Assembly: GCA_036342255.1 (NCBI GenBank)
Contig: JAZAUS010000002.1
Location: 6,334-70,333 of the forward strand
Direction of reading: 5' to 3'
Length of the DNA stretch: 64,000 nucleotides
DNA from: Bacilli bacterium
GTDB taxonomy: Bacteria > Bacillota_I > Bacilli_A > RF39 > UBA660
The position numbers and the translations under genes are program-made. Numbering within the stretch: the stretch's first letter is position 1; every line of letters begins with the position of its first letter. Under the pieces are notes generated by a model that was not told the origin of the DNA, ran no database searches, and worked only from the letters and a program-made list of their open reading frames with translations. Below are positions 1,341 to 48,654 of this stretch, one piece after another.

Positions 1341-2927
1341 TTAGTATTCAATTTCGTTTTGTCTTTGATATTCTACAGGTTCATATACCGTTCCAGTAAA
1401 CCATATTTCACCAGAGTTTTTGTCTCTTATTAAGAACATATATGGTTTGTTAAATGATAAATCTATTTTTTCTACTGGTACTTTGTAAAGATACTCAAAG
1501 CCACAGCTTCCAGCTCCTGCTCCACCAACAGCGGTTGCAGCAGCAGCTTTAATTCCATCATTTGAGAATTCTATATTGGCTTTATGTGTTGCTTTATTAA
1601 TAGCAATATTACTTGATGATAAATTAGATAAATCAGCCTTATTGGAGTCAAATACATTAGTTATTCCTAGTTTATTTAAATCATTCATTAGATTTAATTC
1701 ATAGTCAAATTTAAACATTGGAATATAACCATATATTTCTGTTATTACTCCATCTTTAAAACTATCTAATTCAATTGGTTTTAAATTTGTAATTAGATTA
1801 TTAATTTCTTTAGAGTTGGTATTTTTTATATAATTATCTAAATTATCATTTTTAGGCATAATACCAATATATTGTAGTGTTGTTCCATTATATTCTTTTA
1901 AATCTTTAGCAAATACTTTTACATTATTATCACTATAAAAATTAAAATCGGTTGAACTGCTAAGTTGTTTATATCCTTCATTAATCTCTTTTATATAATC
2001 ATCAACATAAGATTTTACATCTTTATCTTTTCCTGGATCACAACTTTGTGATTCATAATTATCACTATTTAACCATTCTTGGTACTTTTTAGTAATATTA
2101 TCTCTAATATTTTGTTCTCCTAGGGTATTTAAAATATCATATTTATTAGCTACTACTCCAATCTCTGCTGATTTTGCTTTTTTAGAGAAACCATTAAATT
2201 CAAGTTCATGATAAGAAGAAATATTTAATGATCCTATAAATTTATGATAATCTTCATGAGCAAAATTTACATAATATGGTTTAGTTTCACTTTGAATTTT
2301 ATTAACCCATTCCATATCAATTGCTAAGGCATTTGTTAATATAAAATCTTGGTTTGATATATCATCTGCTATATTATTTATTAATTTGAATGTTTTATTA
2401 CTTACCCATGAATTAATAACGTCTGGTGTTTTAAATGAATCATATACTATTTCTGCATTATATTTATTGGATAAAGTACTAGCATATGAATCTTTTATTG
2501 AATTTTTAAAAGAATCTTTAATAAATAATGCATTTGCAAATGACATATTATTATTATTTATATATTTTTTAGCACTATAGGTTCCTATAATATCAGATAT
2601 TTGTTTTTTGGTTTCACCATTTGCTCCTTCTTCAAGCATTTCTAAAGCATATTTAATAGATAGTGGACTATATGTTTTATTCTTTTTCTCATTTTCTAAT
2701 TGAAGAAAATATAAGTCAAAATTTTCTAATGAATTACTTGATAAGCGATATGGTGAATATTTAGTTTCAGTTTTAACTTTAACTTCTTCAAATTTTTTCT
2801 TTCTAGTTATTTCATAGCAACATACACCAAATAGCATTAAAATTATTAACATTAATAATACTACAATAAATAATCTTCTATTTCGTTCTAGATTATCTTT
2901 TTTGATTGTTTTTTCTTTTTTTTTCAC
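1341..2927 (-). CDS. serpin-family protease inhibitor with N-terminal transmembrane anchor
   Basis: 528 aa; hinge/RCL-like GIKAAAATAV and C-terminal FNKPYMFLIRD motif typical of serpins; N-terminal KK-rich segment followed by hydrophobic helix LFIVVLLMLIILMLFGV; GTG start with AGGAG RBS. Confidence 0.75.
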   Translation of the reverse strand: MKKKEKTIKKDNLERNRRLFIVVLLMLIILMLFGVCCYEITRKKKFEEVKVKTETKYSPYRLSSNSLENFDLYFLQLENEKKNKTYSPLSIKYALEMLEEGANGETKKQISDIIGTYSAKKYINNNNMSFANALFIKDSFKNSIKDSYASTLSNKYNAEIVYDSFKTPDVINSWVSNKTFKLINNIADDISNQDFILTNALAIDMEWVNKIQSETKPYYVNFAHEDYHKFIGSLNISSYHELEFNGFSKKAKSAEIGVVANKYDILNTLGEQNIRDNITKKYQEWLNSDNYESQSCDPGKDKDVKSYVDDYIKEINEGYKQLSSSTDFNFYSDNNVKVFAKDLKEYNGTTLQYIGIMPKNDNLDNYIKNTNSKEINNLITNLKPIELDSFKDGVITEIYGYIPMFKFDYELNLMNDLNKLGITNVFDSNKADLSNLSSSNIAINKATHKANIEFSNDGIKAAAATAVGGAGAGSCGFEYLYKVPVEKIDLSFNKPYMFLIRDKNSGEIWFTGTVYEPVEYQRQNEIEY

Positions 2928-2943
2928 TTAATCTACTCCTTTA

Positions 2944-4068
2944 TTATTCTCTATTGCCTTTAGGTACTTGTTGTGTTATACAATGAATGTTTCCTCCACC
3001 TAGTAGAATTTCTCTAGCGTAGATTGGTTCTATTTTTCTATCAGGATATAGTTTTTGTAGTGTTTCAATTGCTTTTTTATCCATTGGATCATTAAATACT
3101 GGTAGAGCTATAAATCCATTGCCTGTCAAATAATTAACATAAGATGCTGCCATTCTATCACCTTCATTACGAGGTAATGTTCCCTCAACATAATCAATTC
3201 CACCACTCTCTTCTGCAGTAATAAATTGAGGAGATGGACAATACAATTTATGAATTTCTAATTTACGACCTCTAGCATCTTTTACTTTACTTAAATATTC
3301 ATAATCTTGTCTGCTAATTTTATATTGAGGGTCCTTCTTATCATCTGACCATGCTAATACTACAACACCAGGTCTAACAAAATTACAAATATTATCTACA
3401 TGTCCATTAGTATCTATGTCATTGTATAATCCTTTAGGAATCCATAATACTTTTTCTACATTTAAATAGTCTTTTAATATTTTTTCGATTTGTTTTTTCT
3501 TAAGTTTTGGATTTCTACCTGGAGATAGTAATGTTTCTTCTGTTACCATTGCTGTTCCTTCTCCATCAACATGGAAAGAACCACCTTCACAAACAAAATC
3601 TCTTATTTGATAGTAATCAACCCACTCAATTTCAGCCATTTTTTGACCTATACATTCATCAAAATCCCAAGGGAAGTATATTCCATCATAGAATCCTCCA
3701 TAGGCATTAAATCCCCAGTCAATTGCTCTTAGATCACCTTTTTTATTTACTAGGAATGTAGCTCCTGTATCTCTAGCCCAAGAATCATTATTAGATAATT
3801 CAATTACTCTAACACTATCTGGTAACATATTTCTAGCATTAGCATATTGATCTTTATTAACTAACATAGTCATTTTTTCATATTTAGCAATTGTACTAGC
3901 TACTTCAACAAATACTTCCTGAGCTGGTTTTGCACCATTACGCCAATTATCTGTTCTTTGTGGCCATAGCATGTATATTCCATCTTGTTCTTCGAATTCT
4001 CCAGGCATCCTAAAACCATCTTTTTTCGGAGTACTTTTTAGTCTTTTCAAATAAATCCCTTCTTTCAA
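2944..4068 (-). CDS. aguA: agmatine deiminase
   Basis: 374 aa; N-terminal STPKKDGFRMPGEFEEQDGIYMLWPQRTDNWR and C-terminal GGGNIHCITQQ match agmatine deiminase (AguA) family. Confidence 0.9.
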   Translation of the reverse strand: MKEGIYLKRLKSTPKKDGFRMPGEFEEQDGIYMLWPQRTDNWRNGAKPAQEVFVEVASTIAKYEKMTMLVNKDQYANARNMLPDSVRVIELSNNDSWARDTGATFLVNKKGDLRAIDWGFNAYGGFYDGIYFPWDFDECIGQKMAEIEWVDYYQIRDFVCEGGSFHVDGEGTAMVTEETLLSPGRNPKLKKKQIEKILKDYLNVEKVLWIPKGLYNDIDTNGHVDNICNFVRPGVVVLAWSDDKKDPQYKISRQDYEYLSKVKDARGRKLEIHKLYCPSPQFITAEESGGIDYVEGTLPRNEGDRMAASYVNYLTGNGFIALPVFNDPMDKKAIETLQKLYPDRKIEPIYAREILLGGGNIHCITQQVPKGNRE

Positions 4069-4116
4069 TTTCTTTTTTTATTAAAGGAATTCTTTATTTA
4101 GAATTCCTTTAATATT

Positions 4117-5517
4117 TTATTTTTTTACTTTTATTCTTGCAACTAATATTTCTTCACATATGAATGATAATATTACTCCAGCATATAGTGGAATACTATC
4201 CATTATATATTCACTTGTAAAATCACCAAATAATGTAAATATAATTCCAAGTACTAAGATTATAAATGGTACCCAGCCTGCTAAAGTGATAAGTGTTGGG
4301 CCTCCTGGTACTTTGTAAGGTCTTTTGGCTTTTGAATCTGTTTTTCTTAGTTTTAAGAATGCTAAGAACATTGGTGCATAACTAATTAATAAAGTTATCC
4401 AACTTAAACAGAAGAATAAGCTAAAACCTGCTCCAAAGTCTTCACTAACTAGATTTGCTATTATGCCACCTATTACAATAGCTGATGCAACTAGACCATT
4501 TATAAGTGCTGCTTTATATGGTACTCCTTCTTCATTAGTTGGAGTAAATATTTTTGGTAAACTTCCATCTTCTGCAGCATATTTAGCTACTTCATTTACA
4601 CCAAATGACCATGATGCGATATTAGCGATAAATGTATATATAAACATTAATCCTGCTACTATTACAAATGATTTCATTAGGCTACTACTTATACCAACTG
4701 CAGTAAATAATGCTGTTAAGACTTCTACAACATTTTCAGGATCCATTTTTGCTACTACTTTTGGTGATAGAGCAATATTAAATCCTGTTGCTGGTAAAAT
4801 GTAGAATATTGCCATTAGTAAGCCACCGAATATTAATGCTTTTGGTATTTCTTTTTTAGGATTTTCCATGTCTTCAGCCCAAGTTCCTACTACTTCAAAT
4901 CCCATAAAGTTGAATAATATTATTGAAATGAATGACCAACTTGCTAAATCCATAGATGGGAATAAGTCTCCTACACCTGTAATTGGATTTGCACTTTTTC
5001 CTGTTTTTAATACTGCATATATTCCTAATAGTCCAATTCCTAATAATAATACTATTTTAAAGATTGTTCCTAGGTTTACTACATATTTGCTTTCACCTAT
5101 TCTTTTTGTACTTAATAGTGTTACTATCCATACATATAATAATTGAATTAATAATAATGTTACAACAGTTAGTTCAATATTAAACATACCTGCTATTATA
5201 TCTGTTACAGCAACAGCTAATGATGCAATCCATAGTGGGAAATTAACCCAATAGTTCCAGGCAACACGTCCAGCCCATTTTGGACCAAATGCTCTTTTTA
5301 CCCAATCATACATTCCTCCTTCACTAGGATATGTAGTTCCAAGTTCTGCTGTAATCATACCATATGGTAGACAAAATGCTATAAGCAAGAATATCCACCA
5401 GAAATATTGTTGATTACCAATAGCAGCTGTTGGCATTACTGATTCACATACTAGTGTTAAACATACAGTTCCTAATATGGCATCAACTAATTTAAATTTT
5501 TTCTTTCCTTTTTCCAT
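4117..5517 (-). CDS. aguD: APC-family agmatine:putrescine antiporter
   Basis: 466 aa, about 12 predicted TM helices, APC transporter signature region near N-term; sits between aguA and putrescine carbamoyltransferase as in agmatine deiminase operons. Confidence 0.8.
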   Translation of the reverse strand: MEKGKKKFKLVDAILGTVCLTLVCESVMPTAAIGNQQYFWWIFLLIAFCLPYGMITAELGTTYPSEGGMYDWVKRAFGPKWAGRVAWNYWVNFPLWIASLAVAVTDIIAGMFNIELTVVTLLLIQLLYVWIVTLLSTKRIGESKYVVNLGTIFKIVLLLGIGLLGIYAVLKTGKSANPITGVGDLFPSMDLASWSFISIILFNFMGFEVVGTWAEDMENPKKEIPKALIFGGLLMAIFYILPATGFNIALSPKVVAKMDPENVVEVLTALFTAVGISSSLMKSFVIVAGLMFIYTFIANIASWSFGVNEVAKYAAEDGSLPKIFTPTNEEGVPYKAALINGLVASAIVIGGIIANLVSEDFGAGFSLFFCLSWITLLISYAPMFLAFLKLRKTDSKAKRPYKVPGGPTLITLAGWVPFIILVLGIIFTLFGDFTSEYIMDSIPLYAGVILSFICEEILVARIKVKK

Positions 5518-39014: not shown

Positions 39015-39443
39015 TTATCTTAATTTAGGTTTATCATTATTCTCAAATAGTTTATTATAATTTGCAACACGTTTTCCATATACTATTTCACTATCGGTTC
39101 TAGATTTATGCATTATTTCTTCAAAAGTTATTTTTTCATAATCTTCTTCAGTAAGAAAGCTATGACTTCCTTTTTTTGATTCTGCTAAGTCTTGGATAAT
39201 GCATTTATAAGTATATACTGTTTTTTCTTCAAGGTTTAGTATGCTATTAGGGATTGGATAATTATTATGAGCAAAACTGTTATATAGTTCTTTTAAGAAT
39301 TTTATTGTTTTAGTATAAGCTGCTTCATCATTTAGCCATTCACCAGCAAGTCTTCCTTTTTCTGTGCTTTCTAAATTGCTTATATATTCATTAAGTTTTT
39401 CATCCCATCTTCTACTTTGTTCTATCTTATCCATTATTATCAC
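39015..39443 (-). CDS. hypothetical protein
   Basis: 142-aa ORF, no recognisable motif. Confidence 0.4.
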   Translation of the reverse strand: MIIMDKIEQSRRWDEKLNEYISNLESTEKGRLAGEWLNDEAAYTKTIKFLKELYNSFAHNNYPIPNSILNLEEKTVYTYKCIIQDLAESKKGSHSFLTEEDYEKITFEEIMHKSRTDSEIVYGKRVANYNKLFENNDKPKLR

Positions 39444-39480: not shown

Positions 39481-39507
39481 AGAAAAAGTAGCAATAGATA
39501 TGCTACT
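39481..39507 (-). terminator. rho-independent terminator after the LOG-like gene
   Basis: hairpin agtagca-N7-tgctact followed by T-run on minus strand; same element recurs at 47040..47070. Confidence 0.5.
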
Positions 39508-40033
39508 TTTTTTGTGTTAATTCAATGGCTTTAGATAAAGCTTCTTGTGGTGTTGATACTTTTATACATTTTAATCTTTTTCTATCATCTAGATATTTAT
39601 TGGATAATTTATTGGCCCAACCACCATATTTGTCTACTACTATTATTGGTATTTCTGCTTGATATGCTATGGCTATTTCGGTTAGGGTTCCTGATCCTCC
39701 TGATATAGCTATTATAATGTCACAAGATAATACTAGGTTAAATTCTCTTCCACCACCTATTTCTAATCCTGAATTGATTAAGATGGTTGGGCGATATGAT
39801 CCATAAATTTTTTTATTTTTACCACTAGTAATACCTACAGTGATTCCATTATTTTTACTGGCTGATTTGGCTGCTTCTGTTGATAGAGATGTATACTCTT
39901 TTTCAGCACCATATACTAGTATGTTTCCTGATTTGGCTATTAATTTGCCTAATTCTTTGGCAAATTTAATAGCTTCTTTACTATATTTTAAATCAGCAGC
40001 TGATCCCATTATACCTATTTGTATCTTTTTCAT
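39503..40033 (-). CDS. LOG-family / TIGR00725-like Rossmann-fold protein
   Basis: 176 aa; GIMGSA...GITVGI...ISGGSGTLTE pattern of LOG/SLOG-type nucleotide-binding proteins. Confidence 0.55.
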   Translation of the reverse strand: MKKIQIGIMGSAADLKYSKEAIKFAKELGKLIAKSGNILVYGAEKEYTSLSTEAAKSASKNNGITVGITSGKNKKIYGSYRPTILINSGLEIGGGREFNLVLSCDIIIAISGGSGTLTEIAIAYQAEIPIIVVDKYGGWANKLSNKYLDDRKRLKCIKVSTPQEALSKAIELTQKK

Positions 40034-40704
40034 AATTTTCTTATCTCCTTCTTTAAGGTTTTAACGACTTCTTCATTTTCATTAGTATTAATTATTCTTT
40101 CAGGTAACTCTGATATTTTGGTATTGGTTTTCTTTTGTTTATCTATTTCTTCCCATAGATAGGTACTTCTATATAGGCAACCTTTAGAAAAATATTTTTC
40201 ATATTTATCAGGTATAGAGGCTCTTTCATTAGGATTGCCATATGGTTTAAAATATGGAGCTTTATAGAGGCCGTTATTGGTATTAATCATAATACCGGAG
40301 CCTGCTATGCCAAAATAGAAGTCTCTTTCACATATTTGATCTATGACACTTGTTGACATTAAATAGTTGGTTATAAGGCCATATTTTAGATTTTGATTAA
40401 AAATATAATAGGCTTTACTGGTAGTTAGGGATGATATTATTCCTACTACTTTTATATTATATTTATTAAATCTATTAATAATATCTTTTAGTACATTACC
40501 TGAGAATACTACATCATCTGCTAATATTATTTGTTTTGCTTGTATTTGGTTAGATAATCTTGATATTTGGTAATCTAATGATTCACTGGTTCTAGATATT
40601 ATTTCATTAGTACCATCTACTCTAGTGCAATCTAAAAAATAGATATTTTTTTCATCAGGCCTTATATAAATTTTATCTAGAGTAACAATGGGGATAGTCA
40701 CCAC
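40030..40704 (-). CDS. type I phosphoribosyltransferase-like protein
   Basis: 224 aa; PRPP-binding-like IILADDVVFSGNVL motif; GTG start; 4-nt overlap with the LOG-like gene. Confidence 0.5.
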   Translation of the reverse strand: MVTIPIVTLDKIYIRPDEKNIYFLDCTRVDGTNEIISRTSESLDYQISRLSNQIQAKQIILADDVVFSGNVLKDIINRFNKYNIKVVGIISSLTTSKAYYIFNQNLKYGLITNYLMSTSVIDQICERDFYFGIAGSGIMINTNNGLYKAPYFKPYGNPNERASIPDKYEKYFSKGCLYRSTYLWEEIDKQKKTNTKISELPERIINTNENEEVVKTLKKEIRKL

Positions 40705-40918
40705 TTATTAGGTTATTTACTTCTAACATTTCTTCTTCTGTAATTATAGTTACATTACTATTAAATATTTTATTTACATCCCTTTTAAAATCTTCTCTTA
40801 TGGTATTAATTACTATATTGTTTGGTATAAATTTATATTCATAATTATAGGCATTTACGCCTTTTAATATTCTTTTTATGTCATTACTAAAGACAATTCC
40901 TTTATTTATTTTTTTCAT
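40673..40918 (-). CDS. hypothetical small protein overlapping the PRTase-like gene start by 32 nt (possible frameshifted N-terminal domain)
   Basis: 81-aa ORF with GAGGAG RBS; different frame from the downstream gene. Confidence 0.4.
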   Translation of the reverse strand: MKKINKGIVFSNDIKRILKGVNAYNYEYKFIPNNIVINTIREDFKRDVNKIFNSNVTIITEEEMLEVNNLISGDYPHCYSR

Positions 40919-40956
40919 AATAATCTCCTCTTTCTTATATTTATTTAATTAAAAAA

Positions 40957-40981
40957 GCTATACAAGTAGTACTTGTATAGC
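40957..40981 (-). terminator. perfect 12-bp-arm palindrome followed by T-run on minus strand, between leader ORF and the RBS of the downstream operon (terminator/attenuator)
   Basis: gctatacaagta-g-tacttgtatagc with aaaaaa on + strand side. Confidence 0.5.
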
Positions 40982-41043
40982 ATAATAGTTTTATTTATAG
41001 CTAGATACAAGCACTACAAATAGCACTTGTACCTACGACAGGG

Positions 41044-41112
41044 TCAATGTCGTATTAACAAGTGCAGACTATTATGATGATGATTAAATTGTATTATATA
41101 TAATTTAATCAT
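41044..41112 (-). CDS. candidate 22-aa leader peptide MIKLYIIQFNHHHNSLHLLIRH
   Basis: ATG with GGAAGG RBS 7 nt upstream; overlaps a series of ACAAGT/ACTTGT alternative pairing segments ending in a terminator hairpin. Confidence 0.2.
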   Translation of the reverse strand: MIKLYIIQFNHHHNSLHLLIRH

Positions 41113-41162
41113 AATAATCCTTCCTTTCGTTGCAGTGATTATAGCATATAATATACTTTAAG

Positions 41163-41723
41163 TCAATTTTTTATGCATATATCTTCAGCATCCCAGTTAT
41201 TAAAATTAGGTTTTAAAGATAGTCTTTTTGCTCTGCTTTCTTTTCTTTTTTTACTTACATCTATATTTCTAATATTATCAAGAGCTATCTCATAATATTT
41301 AATGGCAGTTAAATCATTAATATTAGGATATACTTCTTTTAATTTAAAATATATAGCCTGAGCTAAACTTAAATCACATTTATTTCCAGTATTAATACCA
41401 TCAATTCTACTATGATGATTTTTTAAATAGTCATACATTATTTTATTTTTAAGTGAAAGATCATCTCTATTTTCATCTAAAACGCTTTCATCTAAACCGC
41501 ACTTAATACATCCACAACGTTTATTTTTATCATCATAAACTTTTGAATATACTAATACATGCTTACATAAATCATATTGTTCATTGCATAAGCTATAATT
41601 TAACATCTTCTTTAATTCTATATATTTTTTTACATTTTTATCTTCTTCAAGTAGTTTTATCTCATTCTTTATTTTTTTCCTTATCTCTTTCATTTTAGTA
41701 TATTCATTATCCAATTCTTTCAT
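41163..41723 (-). CDS. hypothetical protein with Cys cluster (CGCIKCG)
   Basis: 186-aa ORF; coiled-coil N-term; possible zinc-binding Cys pairs. Confidence 0.5.
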   Translation of the reverse strand: MKELDNEYTKMKEIRKKIKNEIKLLEEDKNVKKYIELKKMLNYSLCNEQYDLCKHVLVYSKVYDDKNKRCGCIKCGLDESVLDENRDDLSLKNKIMYDYLKNHHSRIDGINTGNKCDLSLAQAIYFKLKEVYPNINDLTAIKYYEIALDNIRNIDVSKKRKESRAKRLSLKPNFNNWDAEDICIKN

Positions 41724-41855
41724 TTAAAATTCCTCCAATTATAAATACTATTATAAATATTTCTCGTTTCTAATGTTTTTACCATTTCTACAAATATATC
41801 AATTTTATTTCTAGAATTGATATTTATTAGTAAATAGAAGAAAAGTTAAACCAAA

Positions 41856-42887
41856 TTATTTACGGCGCAAGCGACAAAGCGGCTTATACTTCATCCGATT
41901 TCTTCTTTCCAAATACAGTCTTTTTTCTTCTTGAAGTTTTTCTCTTGTAATAGGTGAATCATTTTGTACCACACTATCATCATATTTTGAACTTAAAGAT
42001 TGTAATTGTTCTAGATATGGTTTAATTTCTAGTAATACCTCATGTAATTGTTCTTTACTTTCTACATTTTTTAAACTTTCTATAATTTTACTTGTAATAT
42101 CATATTGAGAATATAAATCATCAACACCAATACTCAAATCAACAGAATTTCTTATACTATCACATTCTTCCTGTTTTTCTTTCTTTAAGCTTACAATTCT
42201 ATCAAATGTAAACTCTTTAGTTATATCTTCTGGTAATTTTTTATAATCAAATAATAAACTATTAACTGTAATTTTTTTCCCATATTTCGAAAGTTCGCAT
42301 TTTGAAATGTCGCCTAAGGAAACATCGGCAACTATTTCATAATTAGAACCAGTTGTTCTATATTCAACGATATCGCTTCGATAATTAGGAATTGCCTCCA
42401 TATTATCTAGATATGATATGCTAAAATTCTCATTAAGTTTTGTATATATTTTATACTCATTATTAGTGAAATCCAATTCTTCATTAAATTCTAATCTATC
42501 AAAACCTAATTTATTAATTTGTTCTAATAAAGAAAGTATTCTTTCTAAATCTTTTTGATGGTTTGTAATATACTTATAGAAGAAATCTACACTAGATTCC
42601 TCGTTTGAATTACCATAACAATCATTAATAAATTCACCTATACTATAAAATTTATTTATTATATCTATAACTGATTTATTATCTTTATAGAATCTTTTAA
42701 TTATTTTTGAGCCAACAACAAAATGGCCATTAGATATTTTACATAAATTATATACTATATCACTGTAATCTTCTTCTTTTATCAATCTTGTTAAATTTTT
42801 AGTAAATTCATCATAATCATTTAATATATGACATAATGCAATTAGATTATTTACTTGAATTGATATTGTTTTCTCTTCTTTTTCCAT
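41856..42887 (-). CDS. hypothetical protein
   Basis: 343-aa ORF, no recognisable motif. Confidence 0.5.
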   Translation of the reverse strand: MEKEEKTISIQVNNLIALCHILNDYDEFTKNLTRLIKEEDYSDIVYNLCKISNGHFVVGSKIIKRFYKDNKSVIDIINKFYSIGEFINDCYGNSNEESSVDFFYKYITNHQKDLERILSLLEQINKLGFDRLEFNEELDFTNNEYKIYTKLNENFSISYLDNMEAIPNYRSDIVEYRTTGSNYEIVADVSLGDISKCELSKYGKKITVNSLLFDYKKLPEDITKEFTFDRIVSLKKEKQEECDSIRNSVDLSIGVDDLYSQYDITSKIIESLKNVESKEQLHEVLLEIKPYLEQLQSLSSKYDDSVVQNDSPITREKLQEEKRLYLERRNRMKYKPLCRLRRK

Positions 42888-43025
42888 AAAACCTCCTCAT
42901 TTCGATAATTTATTATATTATTATATAATTAATTAGTCAATCACTTGATTAGGGTATTATTATTTAGTTTTCTTTTTTTCATTTGAATAATTAAATTCTA
43001 GATAGAGTTTATTGCTCTTTATGTC

Positions 43026-43113
43026 TTTTTCTTATAAACAAAAAAAATCAATCATTTCTGATTGATATCTTTCTAAATAATTCGAATAGTTCGAACAGAT
43101 TCGTCAATAGTGT
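43026..43113. repeat. about 87-bp repeat copy A (contains palindromes ATCAATCA-TTTC-TGATTGAT and GTTCGAA-TAG-TTCGAAC)
   Basis: near-identical to 48496..48582; partial copy at 43890..43919. Confidence 0.7.
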
Positions 43114-43127
43114 AATGCCGTAAATAT

Positions 43128-43598
43128 CTACAACTTCTTATTAAGGACTTTTGGATTATTAAAAATTATTTCTGGACTATAATATTTATTAGTAGTTTCT
43201 GTTGCTACCCACCCATAATCTTTAATAATTTTTGAAAATTCATCTAATCTTTTTTCTGGAATAGTTATTAATGGTTTTTCAGTACCTAAATACTCATATG
43301 AATCCTCTAGTATCAATTTAGAATAACCTTTTTTACGATAGTCTTCATTTATTAAAAGTGTACATATTTTAGATTCATCTTCAGTTTTTTTTAACATCGA
43401 TAAACCTACTATTTGAAAACCATCTAAATAAAATATAGCTTCACCATTTCCCGTTATTATTCTTGGTAAATTTTTTTGATAATACCATTTATAATATTCT
43501 GGATACTGAAGTTTATTATAGTCAGTTAATAAATAAATCTCGTTAACAGCTTTAGAAAAATTTTTATCTTTCATATTGCTTAATATATATTTTTCCAT
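43128..43598 (-). CDS. hypothetical protein, possibly GNAT-like acetyltransferase
   Basis: 156 aa; weak R-x-x-G-x-S motif (YRKKGYSKLIL). Confidence 0.4.
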   Translation of the reverse strand: MEKYILSNMKDKNFSKAVNEIYLLTDYNKLQYPEYYKWYYQKNLPRIITGNGEAIFYLDGFQIVGLSMLKKTEDESKICTLLINEDYRKKGYSKLILEDSYEYLGTEKPLITIPEKRLDEFSKIIKDYGWVATETTNKYYSPEIIFNNPKVLNKKL

Positions 43599-43889
43599 AG
43601 TACACCTCGGTTTTATATTATAACATAATCATATGTTATTTCAATATTTTATTTTATCAAAATATCTGTTATTCATTTATATTATTGTAATATTTATACA
43701 ATAGTTTTTACAAGAATATTTAGTTAGTTTAGGTACTATTATCCTTTAACTTTAATAAAAGTGTATAGAGATGAAGTTATGAGAAAATAAGAGAAATATC
43801 TTTGTACTATCATATATTTATTATATAAGATATTTCTTCACATATACAAAATAACAAAAAAAGAACTTTTTGAAAGCTCTCTATATGAA

Positions 43890-43919
43890 GTTCGAATAAT
43901 TCGAACAGATTCGTCAATG
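43890..43919. repeat. partial (30-bp) copy of the GTTCGAATA-TTCGAACAGATTCGTCAAT repeat
   Basis: matches the distal half of the repeats at 43026 and 48496. Confidence 0.6.
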
Positions 43920-44081
43920 ATACATGTGAAGAAAAAGTTGAATACCTTTTCTTGTAAACTTTATTAGGTAGTAATAAATTATTACCTAATATAAATATAC
44001 TACATTTTAAGTAAATGTTACAAAAAATAGTAAAAATATATAATTATATGTTAAAATATATACATAAGGGAGGTTTTTAAT

Positions 44082-45230
44082 TTGAAAAGTGTTGATGAAT
44101 TTGTAAGAAAAGATTGGACTTGGCCTGAAACTCTTAATGGTCAAATTGAAAATTATAAAGAATTAAATGACAGAATTGAAGATTGTTTATCTAGAAAAGA
44201 ACAATATGATAAATTAATTAGTGAAGAAAAGAATAATGAAGAAAATGGGAAATTAAGCTTTAAAGAACAATGGGGGTTATATAGTATTGTTGATAATTTG
44301 ATAAGAAAAAGTTCTAGTAATTGTACTTATTTAGGCGTAGATTTACTAGATTTAAGGCGACGATTAAAAAATGTTTATAAAGAAGTTTATGATTATGTTA
44401 GAATTAAGGATGAATTAAGAAGTCTTAGAGAAGAAAAACATAAAATATTAACTGAATATATTACTTTTAATATTTTTTATAAAGATTTTTTTAATGAACG
44501 TTGTGTAGACAGACACTTTTTTGTTAAATTAGAAGACGAATTAAAATGTATGTGTTGTGGTGCAACAACAAAAGATTATCCTTTGAGTAAAGAAGAACTA
44601 GATTTTTTAACATTATGTGCAGAAAATCAAGGAATATTATTAAAAGAAGTAACTAAAAATGATTTTCCTTTATTACAAGTTCTTATGGAAGAACAAGATT
44701 ATTATAGAAGTTTGAGAGAACCTTTAGATGTTGACAATGAATATTATTTATCAATAGCTGAAGAACAATGGTTAGAAGACGAAGCAGAAATACCACATTT
44801 AAGAGTACAAATTAGAATAGCACATTTACTTGATTCACAAAAATATGATAGTGAAGATATTAAAGTCACTAATCCAAAATACTTATCTGATGAAAAATCA
44901 AAAAAATTATTATTAGAAGTTGAAAAAGAATTGGGAAGAATTCAAGGAATTGATTCTAGATTTAAAGATTTAATGATGGAAGAATGTAAAACTGCAAAAT
45001 ATGAAATATTAATTTTATCAGGAGCACATATCCCAACTTTATTAGAACAAGCACAAAATGAAGATGAAAAAGTTGCATTAACAAAAGCATATTATAATAT
45101 TTCAAATCAAGAATTTAGAGATAATAGTAACTATTTTGATTCAAGATGGGATGCACTTTCATATGATTGCATAACTGCTAATCCTGAAATTAACAATAGA
45201 ATATTACAAATGAAGATAAGAAGAAAATAA
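44082..45230 (+). CDS. hypothetical protein
   Basis: 382-aa ORF with GGGAGG RBS; acidic, Cys-x-x-Cys pair (CMCCGAT). Confidence 0.55.
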   Translation: MKSVDEFVRKDWTWPETLNGQIENYKELNDRIEDCLSRKEQYDKLISEEKNNEENGKLSFKEQWGLYSIVDNLIRKSSSNCTYLGVDLLDLRRRLKNVYKEVYDYVRIKDELRSLREEKHKILTEYITFNIFYKDFFNERCVDRHFFVKLEDELKCMCCGATTKDYPLSKEELDFLTLCAENQGILLKEVTKNDFPLLQVLMEEQDYYRSLREPLDVDNEYYLSIAEEQWLEDEAEIPHLRVQIRIAHLLDSQKYDSEDIKVTNPKYLSDEKSKKLLLEVEKELGRIQGIDSRFKDLMMEECKTAKYEILILSGAHIPTLLEQAQNEDEKVALTKAYYNISNQEFRDNSNYFDSRWDALSYDCITANPEINNRILQMKIRRK

Positions 45231-45354
45231 CTGCAATTTATTGTAATTAAAAAATACATAATTTTGCTTTAACAAAAAGTTCATACTTAATTATATTTTA
45301 GGATTTTAAAAGAAACTTTCACTTTGTACTCCTATTAAATCTGCCAATAAAAAG

Positions 45355-45445
45355 TATGTTTTATCTATTGTATATAGATATTATCGACAAGCGAATGCTT
45401 GTCTTTTTAAATATCAAAATCCTTGTCATGCAATAGTTTTATTAA
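45355..45445 (+). repeat. about 90-bp repeat cassette copy 1 containing an intrinsic terminator
   Basis: 44-nt core identical to 46787..46830 and flanks about 85% identical. Confidence 0.65.
45386..45408 (+). terminator. rho-independent terminator
   Basis: hairpin gacaagc-gaat-gcttgtc followed by ttttt. Confidence 0.7.
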
Positions 45446-45541
45446 TAGATATACTATATTTTAAGGAAAAACAATAAAAAATATATTTTTCCTTAGAAAA
45501 TATGATATAATAGCTTTACTTTCGTTAAGGGGGAAGATAAT

Positions 45542-46603
45542 ATGTTTATACCAGTAGTGCCATTTGTACCACATACAACTGTAATTAATAAGACAATAGT
45601 ATATAATGATATAGTATTACCACTTAAAGATTTAGGTAATAATTTAAAAATTTGTAGTATTAGTAATATTAGTGAATATTCATTAGAAAGTTGCCTAAAA
45701 AAAATATTTGAATCTAATCCTGATGTAATATTTAATACAATTCAATATTCAAAAGAAGGTAAAAAGATATATTTTTATACTGATAAAGCTGTATCTACAC
45801 AAGCTTGGGAAGAAAGCAAAATTACTAAATACAAACCATTAAGCAATAGTGAAGAAATTATAAAAGAAGTTGATGAATTATTTACTCAAGAAAGAATTAA
45901 AGATACTGATTGTATATCATTATATGATATTGCAAATCTAATAAAAATATTTGACAATAAATACAAATATATAAAAGAAAGATATCAAGAACATTTTTAT
46001 AATATTAATCCAAGTATTATAATTTATAATTTTGATTATAAAAAGAAGCAATTAAGAATCGAATTTAAAAATGACGAAATATTTTTTGCAAAACAAAATG
46101 ATGATTTATATGTTGTTGAAAGTGAATCATTACATTATCAAGAATTATTAACTCTTATAGGAAAAGAATTATCAGAGCTTTATGATGAATTAATAAAGTT
46201 CCATGATTTTAAAAATCAATCTGCTTATGAAATAAAAGCATTAAATTCTAATTTCTTAGTTTATATAGGGCAGTATGGTGTTGATATTCATGTCGATAAA
46301 CGATCTAATAGATTTTCCAAAGATTTTAGTTTATCATCCCATAGTTATAAAAAGGAATATTATTATGAATGTAATTCAACTTCAGTTATAACAGCACTTA
46401 AAGGAAAAGAAGATGAGATATTTAAAAGAATATTTGTAAAAATTGATGATTGCCCTGAATGGAGCAAAACAATATTATATCAAATGAGACAAGATCAATT
46501 AGAAGAAGAAAAAAGATTAGAAGAAAAACAACTTTATAAAGAAATGAAAAGGCAAAAAAGATTAGAATTAAAAAGAAAGATTTTTCCTTGGATGAATAAA
46601 TAA
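45542..46603 (+). CDS. hypothetical protein
   Basis: 353-aa ORF with GGGGGAAG RBS; Lys/Glu-rich C-terminal tail. Confidence 0.55.
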   Translation: MFIPVVPFVPHTTVINKTIVYNDIVLPLKDLGNNLKICSISNISEYSLESCLKKIFESNPDVIFNTIQYSKEGKKIYFYTDKAVSTQAWEESKITKYKPLSNSEEIIKEVDELFTQERIKDTDCISLYDIANLIKIFDNKYKYIKERYQEHFYNINPSIIIYNFDYKKKQLRIEFKNDEIFFAKQNDDLYVVESESLHYQELLTLIGKELSELYDELIKFHDFKNQSAYEIKALNSNFLVYIGQYGVDIHVDKRSNRFSKDFSLSSHSYKKEYYYECNSTSVITALKGKEDEIFKRIFVKIDDCPEWSKTILYQMRQDQLEEEKRLEEKQLYKEMKRQKRLELKRKIFPWMNK

Positions 46604-46751
46604 TAGTCAAGCATGTTTCTGTTTGCGATTGCAAATAAAAGTGGCAATAGATTTTAAAAAAACATATTTTTGATTGATTGTTTAATTAAGCTTTAAGGTT
46701 TCAAAAGGGAATATTCCCTTTGCACACACCATTTTGACTCTATCAAATGAA

Positions 46752-46850
46752 AAATATGTTACTCTATTAGAAATAGAATATTATATGACAAGCGAATGCT
46801 TGTCTTTTTAAATATCAAAATCCTTGTCATACCATAGTTTTATAAAAGAT
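46752..46850 (+). repeat. repeat cassette copy 2 containing an intrinsic terminator
   Basis: see copy 1. Confidence 0.65.
46787..46809 (+). terminator. rho-independent terminator
   Basis: hairpin gacaagc-gaat-gcttgtc followed by ttttt. Confidence 0.7.
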
Positions 46851-46879
46851 ATAATCATTCTCACTTTCTTTCTTAAACA

Positions 46880-47036
46880 ACAAAAAAAACTAACATTTCT
46901 AGTTAGTTCATTTATTGCATCTCGGATAAGTTGTCCGAGTTTACTATCATAATGGTGCGAACGACGAAGTGGTTTACAACTCTTTGGCATAAAGACGATT
47001 GATTTATATCAATCACTACATTCATTTTACCAAAGA
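46880..47036 (-). ncRNA. candidate small structured RNA (locally GC-richer, bounded by two minus-strand terminators)
   Basis: lies between the terminator of gene 47064..47771 (47040..47070) and hairpin aactaac-N7-gttagtt plus T-run (46880..46906); internal hairpins ctcgga-N7-tccgag and gattgat-ataa-atcaatc. Confidence 0.25.
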
Positions 47037-47063
47037 ATAGAAAAAGTAGCAATAACTTTTATG

Positions 47064-47771
47064 CTACTTTGATTCTTTTTTTCTTCCTAATACTTTTTGT
47101 TTTGCTTTTTGCAATTGTTCTTTTTCTTTTTGGTACATTTGCTCTTCAATAATTTTTATATTTTTTTGTTCCTCAGATTCAATTTTATCAATGTCTTCTT
47201 TACTACTTACTTTTATAAAAGAATCTCTAAGTTGACTATAACAATCAGAATTTGGTAGTAATGTATTTGGATCAACTGTAAATATTAATTTTTGATTATT
47301 TAATCTATATGAATATATTTCTTTTTCAACATATAATTTAATTTCATCTGGATTTTCATCATCTTTATATATATCTATAATAGTACCTTCTAACCAATTA
47401 GCTTCTTTTAGCATACTATTATCTTTTATAGAATAAATACCTCCACAACGATATCGACCAGTGTTGCCCCAATAAGTGAACATTATCCTATCATCAGAAA
47501 TAAAATAAAATTGACTAAATCTTTCAGAAAATAATTTTATAAACTTAGATTTTTGTAGTTTATATCTTACTATTTCGAAATCATCATAATTTGCTCTTCT
47601 AAAAACAAGAAACTCATCGTCTGTGACTTGTTCAAAACCTATAATGTGATTCAAAAAATAAATTTCTTCATTTTCCTTATCTATAAGTTTGTAAGAATTA
47701 TAATTTTCTTTATCAATTTCAACGATTTTCCATCTTTTTTCATCTGCTTTTGTTTCATATAATCTACTCAT
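47064..47771 (-). CDS. hypothetical protein
   Basis: 235-aa ORF with GGAGGGA RBS. Confidence 0.5.
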   Translation of the reverse strand: MSRLYETKADEKRWKIVEIDKENYNSYKLIDKENEEIYFLNHIIGFEQVTDDEFLVFRRANYDDFEIVRYKLQKSKFIKLFSERFSQFYFISDDRIMFTYWGNTGRYRCGGIYSIKDNSMLKEANWLEGTIIDIYKDDENPDEIKLYVEKEIYSYRLNNQKLIFTVDPNTLLPNSDCYSQLRDSFIKVSSKEDIDKIESEEQKNIKIIEEQMYQKEKEQLQKAKQKVLGRKKESK

Positions 47772-47846
47772 AGTATCCCTCCTGTTTAATTAGCATATAT
47801 TATAACATAACTTTTTGGCTTTTCATACTACAATTATTTTTTTTTA

Positions 47847-48485
47847 TTACCTCTCATAATCATCACGATTTTTCTCTTTTTTATTAATAACACTAGTATA
47901 TTCTTTTTCGTCCATAATACCATTTATAAATAAATTATCAGCCATTTCTTTATATTTATCATCTTTATCGCCAAATATACCATGTATTTTATCGTGAATA
48001 AATTTTATTACTCTTTGAAATTTATCTTTCCAATAGTCTAATGAATCTTTTAAATCTTTTATTTTAGATTTTAATGAAGAAATTTCATCATCTGAATTTT
48101 CTTCATTTTCATAGTAAGGAACATGTTTTGATTCTACTAATATAGATTCCTTACTATATACAACATTACCATCACATTCAGCTGGTATTAATTTAAATAC
48201 ATCATCAACATTTTCTAGTAAAGTTCCATTATCTTCTTTAACATATAATACACCAAGATTATGAACATAGATTTCATTTGAATAATTAAATGCTAGAAAT
48301 GTAATACCTTTAATAATAATTCTATGTGGCTCAATATAAGTTAAATTAGTATGTTGTATTTTCCTAATACTACCATTCTCTATGATAGGTGTAGTATTGC
48401 AAAAATCACATATAACATTTAATCTAGAAACTAATGATTCATCAATCTCAATTTCTTCTTTAATTATTTTTATCATAGACACCAA
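47847..48485 (-). CDS. hypothetical protein (TTG start in ORF track)
   Basis: 212-aa ORF; Cys pairs (CDFCNTTP ... AECDG). Confidence 0.45.
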   Translation of the reverse strand: MVSMIKIIKEEIEIDESLVSRLNVICDFCNTTPIIENGSIRKIQHTNLTYIEPHRIIIKGITFLAFNYSNEIYVHNLGVLYVKEDNGTLLENVDDVFKLIPAECDGNVVYSKESILVESKHVPYYENEENSDDEISSLKSKIKDLKDSLDYWKDKFQRVIKFIHDKIHGIFGDKDDKYKEMADNLFINGIMDEKEYTSVINKKEKNRDDYER

Positions 48486-48495
48486 CCTTTCTATG

Positions 48496-48582
48496 ATTTT
48501 TTCTTATAAAATGAAAAAATCAATCATTTCTGATTGATATCTATCTAAAAGTTCGAATAGTTCGAACAGATTCGTCAATGGT
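48496..48582. repeat. about 87-bp repeat copy B, abutting the 3' end of tRNA-Thr
   Basis: near-identical to 43026..43113; last 3-4 nt overlap the tRNA CCA end. Confidence 0.7.
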
Positions 48583-48654
48583 GCTGAAGACAGGACTTGA
48601 ACCTGCGACCTATTCATTACGAGTGAATTGCTCTACCAACTGAGCTACTTCAGC
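48579..48654 (-). tRNA. tRNA-Thr (anticodon CGU), CCA encoded
   Basis: cloverleaf folds by hand: acceptor GCUGAAG/CUUCAGC, D-stem GCUC/GAGC, anticodon stem AUUCA/UGAAU with loop CUCGUAA, T-loop GGTTCAAGTCC. Confidence 0.85.

Follow-up and report, generated by a model that had tools for sequence, protein, structure and literature searches.

A predicted histidine-responsive attenuator and a candidate +1 frameshift site in a phosphoribosyltransferase/SLOG operon of uncultured Bacilli

What might a small histidine-rich open reading frame (ORF) sense, and what would it control, when it stands directly in front of a phosphoribosyltransferase (PRTase) gene and a SLOG gene? This question is raised by a locus on the minus strand of a 64,000-nucleotide (nt) stretch of a Bacilli bacterium (lineage RF39; UBA660; contig JAZAUS010000002.1, positions 6,334 to 70,333), here called the window, which has a guanine plus cytosine content of ~24%. 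An earlier note, made from the letters alone, had proposed ribosome-mediated attenuation with mutually exclusive stems, and this proposal is now supported by the coding signature of the small ORF, its His run, the conserved stems and a modelled switch. Judging from the comparison of related loci and from folding models, we propose that 40951..41166 is very probably a histidine-specific ribosome-mediated transcription attenuator. A candidate +1 frameshift site inside the PRTase gene may add a second histidine-dependent step. The coordinates of all features are collected in Table 1.

Leader peptide, histidine run and hisS

A PRTase profile search of species-representative genomes returned 60 related loci, among which the three-ORF cassette found in the window, consisting of an 81-amino-acid (81-aa) ORF, the PRTase and the SLOG gene, is conserved. 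The earlier note had suggested a search for the same leader upstream of homologous operons, and had named a lack of conservation in relatives as a result that would speak against attenuation. A blastn search of this kind located the leader in 40 loci, directly before the cassette, with nucleotide identities of 63-85%, while identity at the level of the PRTase protein is only 44-75%. Leaders of other sequence classes were identified in 10 further loci (L027, L028, L030, L043, L046, L049, L051, L052, L053 and L056), so that ~50 of the 60 loci have a leader in front of this cassette. One locus, L047, is clearly without a leader, and several distant or truncated loci among the 60 are uninformative.

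In a multiple alignment of 39 leaders, conservation extends over the promoter boxes, the ribosome-binding site (RBS), the ATG, the His codons, every pairing segment and the terminator. The leader promoter matches the sigma-70 consensus at 11 of 12 positions and carries an extended -10 (TG), from which transcription would start near 41131. A start downstream of the small ORF had been named as an observation that would speak against attenuation; in the alignment the conserved -35/-10 boxes lie upstream of it. The His-rich 22-aa ORF with a good RBS that had been described is present on the minus strand, and five of its 22 codons encode His, namely the run of three CAU and two more, while His makes up 0.97% of the codons in the long ORFs of the window. 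The pattern CAYCAYCAY occurs seven times in the window vs 1.8 expected, the remaining six occurrences lying in short out-of-frame stretches, and other CATCATCAT sites within the window were considered and rejected as leaders.

The way in which the small ORF varies among relatives is that of a gene. In 34 leaders, no stop codon was found in the ORF frame vs 88 and 120 in the other frames, the variable N-terminal part measures 24, 27 or 30 nt, all of them multiples of three, and the stop falls at one alignment column as TAA (31 leaders), TGA (3) or TAG (1); moreover, CAC replaces CAT at some of the His codons in some loci. Because in-frame stops are absent, indels come in multiples of three and the stop codon is interchangeable, this comparison shows that the small ORF evolves as a coding sequence and, judged by that pattern, is translated.

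The peptides themselves differ from class to class. Leaders of classes A and B keep a C-terminal motif, N[NS]LHLLIRH, class C leaders read M..FLN[EQ]LHHHRRSL (L027, L028, L030, L043, L046 and L038), and other leaders read ...IHLHHHP (L049), ...LHHHLH (L051) or ...YHHHLK (L053), with ...LHHTLI (L056), ...IIHHNLH... (L052) and ...ELHHHCRSTCIA (L048) as further forms. The His run takes the form HHH in most loci and HH or HHN-H in a few, and it is the sole peptide feature common to at least four otherwise different RNA designs, all leader classes included. A His run as the only common feature speaks against a specific arrest peptide and likewise against a riboswitch aptamer. The idea that HHHNN serves as a run of NAU codons for tRNAs with queuosine at position 34 (Q34) was also considered and rejected, since other classes read HHHRRSL or HHHLH without Asn.

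A second pointer to histidine comes from the gene neighbourhood. The histidyl-tRNA synthetase gene hisS lies in or beside the cassette in 18 loci and is the only gene recurring there, with a linkage that spans Bacilli, Clostridia and Patescibacteria. It overlaps the end of the SLOG gene in L004, L007, L012, L016, L018, L021, L023, L026, L039, L042, L044 and L059, precedes the PRTase gene in L019 and L048, is adjacent in L047 and L058, and is partial in L001 and L008. The cassette-linked synthetases (HisRS) are full-length (PF13393 + PF03129) and belong to two families with ~30% mutual identity. In L048 the His leader stands directly in front of hisS. No hisS is present in the window.

These data bear on the possibility that the leader is a sequence-specific arrest peptide, or a general translation-stress sensor of the erm/cat type, that does not respond to histidine. 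Such a leader would explain why the N[NS]LHLLIRH motif is kept within classes A and B, and the helix over the leader start (P1, described below), together with two similar initiation regions, does recall translational attenuation. However, the residues that follow the His run differ fully by class (NNLHLLIRH, RRSL, CRSTCIA, LH, LK and P) and overlap RNA stems, while the linkage to hisS points specifically to histidine; we thus regard a histidine-independent arrest peptide as very unlikely.

Mutually exclusive helices and the modelled switch

The 185-nt leader transcript folds with -55.2 kcal/mol vs -30.1 +/- 3.4 kcal/mol for 200 dinucleotide shuffles (z = -7.4), thus its structure goes beyond chance. 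Five segments are predicted to form two exclusive folds, either P2 together with 3:4 or 2:3 together with 4:5, so that the folding of alternative structures advised earlier has yielded two exclusive folds, both of them conserved. The 3' part of the ORF had been claimed to pair with a segment 27 nt downstream, and the complementary octamers GCACTTGT and ACAAGTGC were indeed found at this spacing, where they form the outer stem of P2 (41023..41065, outer and inner stem together, predicted at -20.1 kcal/mol). The final hairpin is likewise present as described, a palindrome of GCUAUACAAGUA C UACUUGUAUAGC with 12-nt arms that are 100% complementary, followed by TTTTTT, a GAGGAG RBS (40930..40925) and the ATG of the next gene at 40918. 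The promoter, helix P1 and the inner P2 stem around the leader stop codon go beyond what the earlier note contained. In P1, the 3' strand CAUAAUAGUCU comprises the last His codon and the codons that follow it.

Both folds are kept across the alignment. Paired cells amount to 91.5% for the antiterminated and 92.7% for the terminated fold, 14 pairs are changed on both sides in each fold, and none of 500 shuffles reaches the observed values; when the 3' partners were slid as a control, pairing fell to 24-53%. By helix, pairing is retained in 92.5% of cells in P1 (5 of 11 pairs changed on both sides), in 98% in the outer and 89% in the inner stem of P2 across the 39 leaders, in 90.7% in helix 2:3, and in 95% in the terminator, where 8 of 12 pairs carry compensatory changes. 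P2 and 2:3 are nearly invariant, which would be anticipated of segments with two partners that also code for the peptide. In L048 a compensatory variant, AUUGUAGG/CCUACAAU, replaces AUCGUAGG/CCUACGAU, and in class C segment 3 is the partner of the codons that come after the His run.

How these folds might be selected by a translating ribosome was modelled by equilibrium folding, with the ribosome represented by barring positions -15 to +12 nt relative to the A-site codon from pairing. In the window's leader, the terminator probability stays at 0.04-0.06 while the A site is at codons 7-13 and rises to 0.96-0.98 at codon 14 and all later positions up to the stop, which means that the modelled switch from antiterminator to terminator falls one codon past the last His; with the ribosome at the leader stop codon, helix 2:3 forms in the model. 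Eighteen leaders (the window and 17 others) switch at equilibrium, 16 of them exactly one codon past the last His. Folding of truncated class C transcripts favours the antiterminator (0.91) only with the ribosome on the first or middle His codon.

According to the mechanism that we propose, a strong promoter would start a leader transcript of ~180 nt, and a ribosome would translate its 22-codon ORF. When His-tRNA(His) is plentiful, the ribosome would pass the three CAU codons, enter segment 1 and unwind P2, and the freed segment 2 would then pair with segment 3 and segment 4 with segment 5, yielding a terminator with its U-run that stops transcription ahead of the operon. If His-tRNA(His) runs short, the ribosome would stall at codons 11-13, P2 would be kept, the 3:4 antiterminator would form, and the polymerase would read into the 81-aa ORF/PRTase gene and the SLOG gene, as well as into hisS in many relatives. 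We infer from this scheme a response to histidine and a dependence on the timing of ribosome and polymerase.

Several points weigh against the attenuator and temper our confidence in it. The case is built on sequence comparison and modelling in hosts that are uncultured, the His run counts three codons vs seven in E. coli hisL, and no recognisable histidine gene is found in the window's operon. In class B, class C and the distant leaders, about half of the total, the terminator dominates every modelled equilibrium state; if the attenuator reading holds, the switch in class B and in the distant leaders must, according to the model, be kinetic, that is, co-transcriptional. An untranslated leader of the window's class is predicted to read through, which is the opposite of the trp paradigm, and P1 is predicted to sequester the leader's own start, which makes the efficiency of leader translation uncertain.

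A side observation concerns the same start region. The initiation regions of the leader ORF, GAAAGGAAGGATTATTATGA (41128..41097), and of the 81-aa gene, GAAAGAGGAGATTATTATGA (40934..40903), form a 75% direct repeat, and by virtue of this similarity CAUAAUAGUCU might cover the start of the first gene too, as a possible layer of translational control.

Could the RNA instead bind a metabolite? In a riboswitch, a core of ~90 nt would act as a nucleotide-related aptamer, or as one related to phosphoribosyl pyrophosphate (PRPP), and the small ORF would be incidental; the core nucleotides are nearly invariant in classes A and B and more conserved than the PRTase protein, the RNA is as strongly structured as the z-score indicates, and the downstream genes handle nucleotides or PRPP. 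On the other hand, the ORF has a clear coding signature, the His run persists where the core is wholly replaced, namely in class C and the distant classes, and the high conservation can be explained by segments that each have two pairing partners and also encode the peptide. Nor did the region match an Rfam family at the gathering score: the search of the whole window at that score returned a tRNA-Thr only, and a permissive regional search gave chance-level microRNA (miRNA), CRISPR direct-repeat (CRISPR-DR) and small RNA (sRNA) matches. A riboswitch is thus highly improbable. A retron non-coding RNA and a type III toxin-antitoxin RNA were also rejected, there being no reverse transcriptase and no tandem repeats, and the ORF being clearly coding.

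Control by a protein, in which the PRTase product would bind its own leader in the manner of PyrR or another RNA-binding protein would select the fold, appears equally remote. Among matches to many PRTase models, the PRTase shows weak ones to PyrR models (E = 0.002-0.07), and sequence conservation in the P2 loops is strong. These PyrR matches, however, cover the generic PRPP-binding loop only and lie far below curated cut-offs, the closest structural matches are generic type I PRTases, no RNA motif apart from the His codons is common to the leader classes, and in L048 the same leader directly precedes hisS. PyrR-like autoregulation was accordingly rejected as a candidate, its sole support being the similarity of the generic PRPP loop.

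The histidine attenuator that we favour has clear parallels. Like hisL of Enterobacteria (RF00514), it has a translated short leader, tandem His codons, exclusive helices and an intrinsic terminator before the operon, and in both a ribosome stalled at the His codons would result in readthrough. Unlike hisL, it has three His codons and not seven, is composed of five segments, and possesses an extra helix that would sequester the leader's own start; in place of a his biosynthesis operon it would control a PRTase/SLOG cassette, joined by hisS in some relatives, and its host is an uncultured low-GC member of the Bacilli. The RF00514 covariance model gave no gathering-score match, and none at E <= 10 in 40800..41300. 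The His-specific T-box (RF00230), by which hisS and his genes are usually controlled in Firmicutes, likewise responds to tRNA(His) charging by a choice between terminator and antiterminator upstream of hisS, but its RNA pairs directly with the uncharged tRNA that it senses, and a leader ORF is lacking; its covariance model found no match in the window.

Closer relatives have been predicted in Firmicutes, where His leader-peptide attenuators with 3-5 consecutive His codons and attenuator/terminator hairpins were described (PMC2965389; PMC9413887). The predicted targets are his biosynthesis operons, hisZ and a Bacillus hisS paralogue (Naville and Gautheret 2010, PMC2965389; Ashniev et al. 2022, PMC9413887), the leaders upstream of the Bacillus hisS paralogue and of hisZ having been predicted by Naville and Gautheret in 2010 (PMC2965389). 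The published Terrisporobacter (Peptostreptococcaceae) and Lutispora leaders have the core CATCAT..TTGT..hairpin..TAGRTRCAAG in common with the leader of the window; therefore, by this shared core, the latter appears to be a member of the already predicted Firmicutes His-attenuator family, with a new target operon. Among the predicted Firmicutes leaders, in contrast, none has been reported before a PRTase/SLOG cassette and none with a frameshift. The leader would extend the predicted class into uncultured small-genome gut Bacilli and Clostridia with a new target, and would assign a cue, low tRNA(His) charging, to a widespread PRTase/SLOG cassette.

CCC_CAU as a candidate +1 frameshift site

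The gene that the leader would control raises a further question, as the PRTase is split between two overlapping frames. The 81-aa ORF ends in frame 0 with GGT GAC TAT CCC CAT TGT TAC TCT AGA TAA, while the +1 frame at the junction reads ATC CCC ATT GTT ACT CTA GAT AAA. Some orthologues encode a single in-frame PRTase of 295-307 aa with ...(D/K)YP-IV[TS]LDK... at this place, and a +1 shift at CCC_C reproduces the fused-orthologue sequence YP-IV[TS]LDK exactly. AlphaFold2 modelled a fused orthologue as one confident chain, the 81-aa part with the PRTase core (predicted local distance difference test, pLDDT, 85; predicted template-modelling score, pTM, 0.83).

The putative shift site is conserved. 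CCC_CAT is kept in the window and in 39 loci, through all leader classes and despite variable flanks, and yet CCC accounts for 3.9% of the Pro codons in the ORFs of the window, and the 18 other in-frame CCC among 17,873 codons all precede a base other than C. At the site itself, fused orthologues carry CCA or CCT, then AT[TA]. The frame-0 stop usually comes five codons after CCC_CAT (range 4-12), and in the range L001-L046 the site falls near locus position 4000. Upstream of this site 1, the +1 frame is open for 2-11 codons only in nearly all of the 40 sequences, and in 12 loci this short stretch holds no ATG, GTG or TTG. Most split genes carry a Shine-Dalgarno (SD)-like element ~3 nt upstream, with a median duplex energy of -7.8 kcal/mol; the duplex reaches -6 kcal/mol or lower in 30 of the 40 site-1 sequences (the raw count of 31 of 41 includes a spurious match in L052). 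The element is usually the strongest anti-SD match of the gene, and it is weak in fused genes and missing in some class C loci.

An independent second site was identified in a distant Clostridia clade (L051, L052, L053, L056 and the metagenomic L061), whose PRTase genes are in frame at site 1. All five of these sequences have CCC_CAT ~50 codons further on, just before the PRPP loop, and their +1 frame at this second site reads P-I-E-[IV]-S-L-I-D-D-V-V-F-S-G. One locus was returned by a metagenome pattern scan. Both independent sites place CAU (His) in the A site in frame 0.

On the strength of these comparisons, we consider it fairly probable, though only somewhat better than even, that the full-length PRTase requires a +1 frameshift at CCC_CAU and that this frameshift serves as a second histidine-sensing step. 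Peptidyl-tRNA(Pro) would re-pair from CCC to the overlapping CCC while the A site awaits His-tRNA, and the enzyme would be made only when His charging is low at the time of both transcription and translation. A hungry-His-codon mechanism is plausible because of the two independent Pro-Ile sites, the location in a His-leader operon and the linkage to hisS. Whether the whole arrangement consists of two serial histidine sensors, the leader attenuator and a hungry-His-codon frameshift whose site evolved twice in the gene family, seems to us an even bet.

Three considerations count against the frameshift. A +1-frame GTG lies just upstream of the site in the window and in many class A loci, the SD-like element could also drive weak initiation at AUU, and a CCC_C that precedes an Ile codon necessarily yields CAU, so that the identity of the codon as His could be partly coincidental. 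The corresponding alternative is that no programmed frameshift takes place, and that the locus specifies two separate, translationally coupled polypeptides, the second starting from GTG or AUU after the SD-like element, or else an inherited pseudogene. Gene callers do annotate a protein of 223-228 aa in most genomes, a GTG or TTG is available in the +1 frame of class A loci, and the SD-like element lies 7-8 nt before AUU. However, twelve loci are without a canonical start in the short +1 stretch and class C loci occur without the SD-like element, and neither a rare CCC unchanged across 40 sequences where fused orthologues have CCA or CCT, nor a join that yields precisely the fused sequence, is expected of separate ORFs. 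In the second clade, moreover, CCC_CAT stands directly before the PRPP loop, where a split protein is implausible, and intact frames on both sides in ~45 genomes speak against decay. Separate polypeptides or a pseudogene are therefore unlikely, if less so than the alternatives to the attenuator.

The candidate frameshift can be compared with established recoding sites. The prfB gene of release factor 2 (RF2) has the site AGGGGG-UAU-CUU-UGA, with an SD-like element ~3 nt upstream. The site described here is similar to prfB in the position of its SD-like element and in that some in-frame orthologues are without the site, and similar to the CCC_UGA sites of the Listeria phages PSA and A118 in its CCC slippery codon (PMC5009743). 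Unlike prfB, which uses a stop codon, and Ty1, which uses a constitutively rare codon (CUU_AGG_C), the slow codon would here be the sense codon CAU, decoded at a rate that depends on histidine. A recoding review of 2016 stated that 'no examples are known' of hungry-codon frameshifting that makes starvation-specific proteins (PMC5009743), and our literature search found no later reports of natural hungry-codon frameshifting. If true, the present case would represent natural regulatory hungry-codon frameshifting and answer a question of the recoding literature, with a cassette of ~30 nt that is directly testable. The PRTase/SLOG pair, often co-operonic with hisS, would then be a histidine-starvation response module, and annotation as ORFs of 81 aa and 224 aa probably misses the real product of ~295 aa in most genomes.

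The cassette and its surroundings

Table 1. Features of the leader, the candidate frameshift site and the cassette in the window
Feature	Coordinates	Strand	Remarks
Predicted sigma-70 promoter of the leader transcript	41166..41138	minus	-35 TTGACT, 17-nt spacer, TG-extended -10 TATAAT
Shine-Dalgarno region of the leader ORF	41128..41119	minus	GAAAGGAAGG; conserved in the leader alignment
Leader peptide ORF	41112..41044	minus	22 codons + TGA; encodes MIKLYIIQFNHHHNSLHLLIRH
His codons CAU CAU CAU, putatively regulatory	41082..41074	minus	leader codons 11-13
Helix P1	41120..41110 with 41076..41066	minus	leader RBS/AUG with CAUAAUAGUCU; AU-rich, predicted -11.6 kcal/mol
Helix P2 (segments 1:2), outer stem	41065..41058 with 41030..41023	minus	GCACUUGU with ACAAGUGC
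Helix P2, inner stem	41054..41048 with 41040..41034	minus	UACGACA/UGUCGUA; loop contains the leader stop codon
Alternative helix 2:3 (putative anti-antiterminator)	41002..41035	minus	UAGGUACAAGUGCUA with UAGUGCUUGUAUCUA; predicted -17.0 kcal/mol
Putative antiterminator 3:4	41017..41005 with 40978..40966	minus	GUAGUGCUUGUAU with AUACAAGUACUAC; segment 3 DNA GTAGTGCTTGTAT; predicted -18.4 kcal/mol
Predicted intrinsic terminator 4:5	40981..40957, U6 at 40956..40951	minus	predicted -12.8 kcal/mol
81-aa ORF, first in operon, frame 0	40918..40673	minus	corresponds to the N-terminal part of the PRTase
Candidate +1 frameshift cassette	40704..40685	minus	SD-like GUGGUGA 40704..40698, spacer CUAU 40697..40694
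Candidate shift codon CCC	40693..40691	minus	frame-0 A-site CAU (His) 40690..40688; +1 frame AUU GUU
PRTase-like ORF, +1 frame	40704..40030	minus	annotated 224 aa from GTG; overlaps the 81-aa ORF
Proposed full product	40918..40691 (frame 0), then 40689..40030 (frame +1)	minus	~295 aa
SLOG cluster-4 / TIGR00725-like protein	40033..39503	minus	176 aa; PF18306, E = 7.7e-30; last gene of the cassette
Terminator-like hairpin at the end of the SLOG gene	39511..39483	minus	probable operon end in this genome

The genes downstream of the leader had been read as PRTase-like and LOG-like, and profile searches agree with this: the PRTase matches Pfam PF00156/PF24390 and the SLOG protein matches PF18306. 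The PRTase possesses a type I PRPP loop, and its matches to PF00156 and PF24390 are weak. With regard to its substrate, sequence searches of PDB and NCBIfam, and AlphaFold2 combined with Foldseek, gave only generic type I PRTases; the structural matches comprise OPRT, HGPRT, UPRT, APRT and PRPP synthetase at template-modelling (TM) scores of 0.2-0.3.

None of the window's genes on either side of the cassette (142, 186 and 343 aa, and others) recurs beside it in related loci, and because of this they are not regarded as part of the system. PADLOC, run on 10 neighbouring proteins, recognised nothing meaningful, thus a known defence system is not supported. Past the terminator-like hairpin, a 142-aa ORF (39443..39015, minus strand) shows a weak ArdA-like match (E = 0.02) and is absent from all related loci. 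On the other side, 41163..48485 holds ORFs of 156-382 aa on both strands, none of which stands beside the cassette in other loci; they gave no convincing Pfam or PADLOC match, with one GNAT-like match and weak RepL and Phage_CRI matches. This block, which ends at a tRNA-Thr(CGT) gene (48579..48654), may be an integrated element.

Two of the related loci show peculiarities of their own. In L048 the PRTase frame looks fragmented (ORFs 1799-2167 and 2472-2774; region 1799..2774), which may reflect decay or an assembly error, and L019 contains a second SLOG-like ORF (3767..4402) ~800 nt downstream of the SLOG gene of the cassette.

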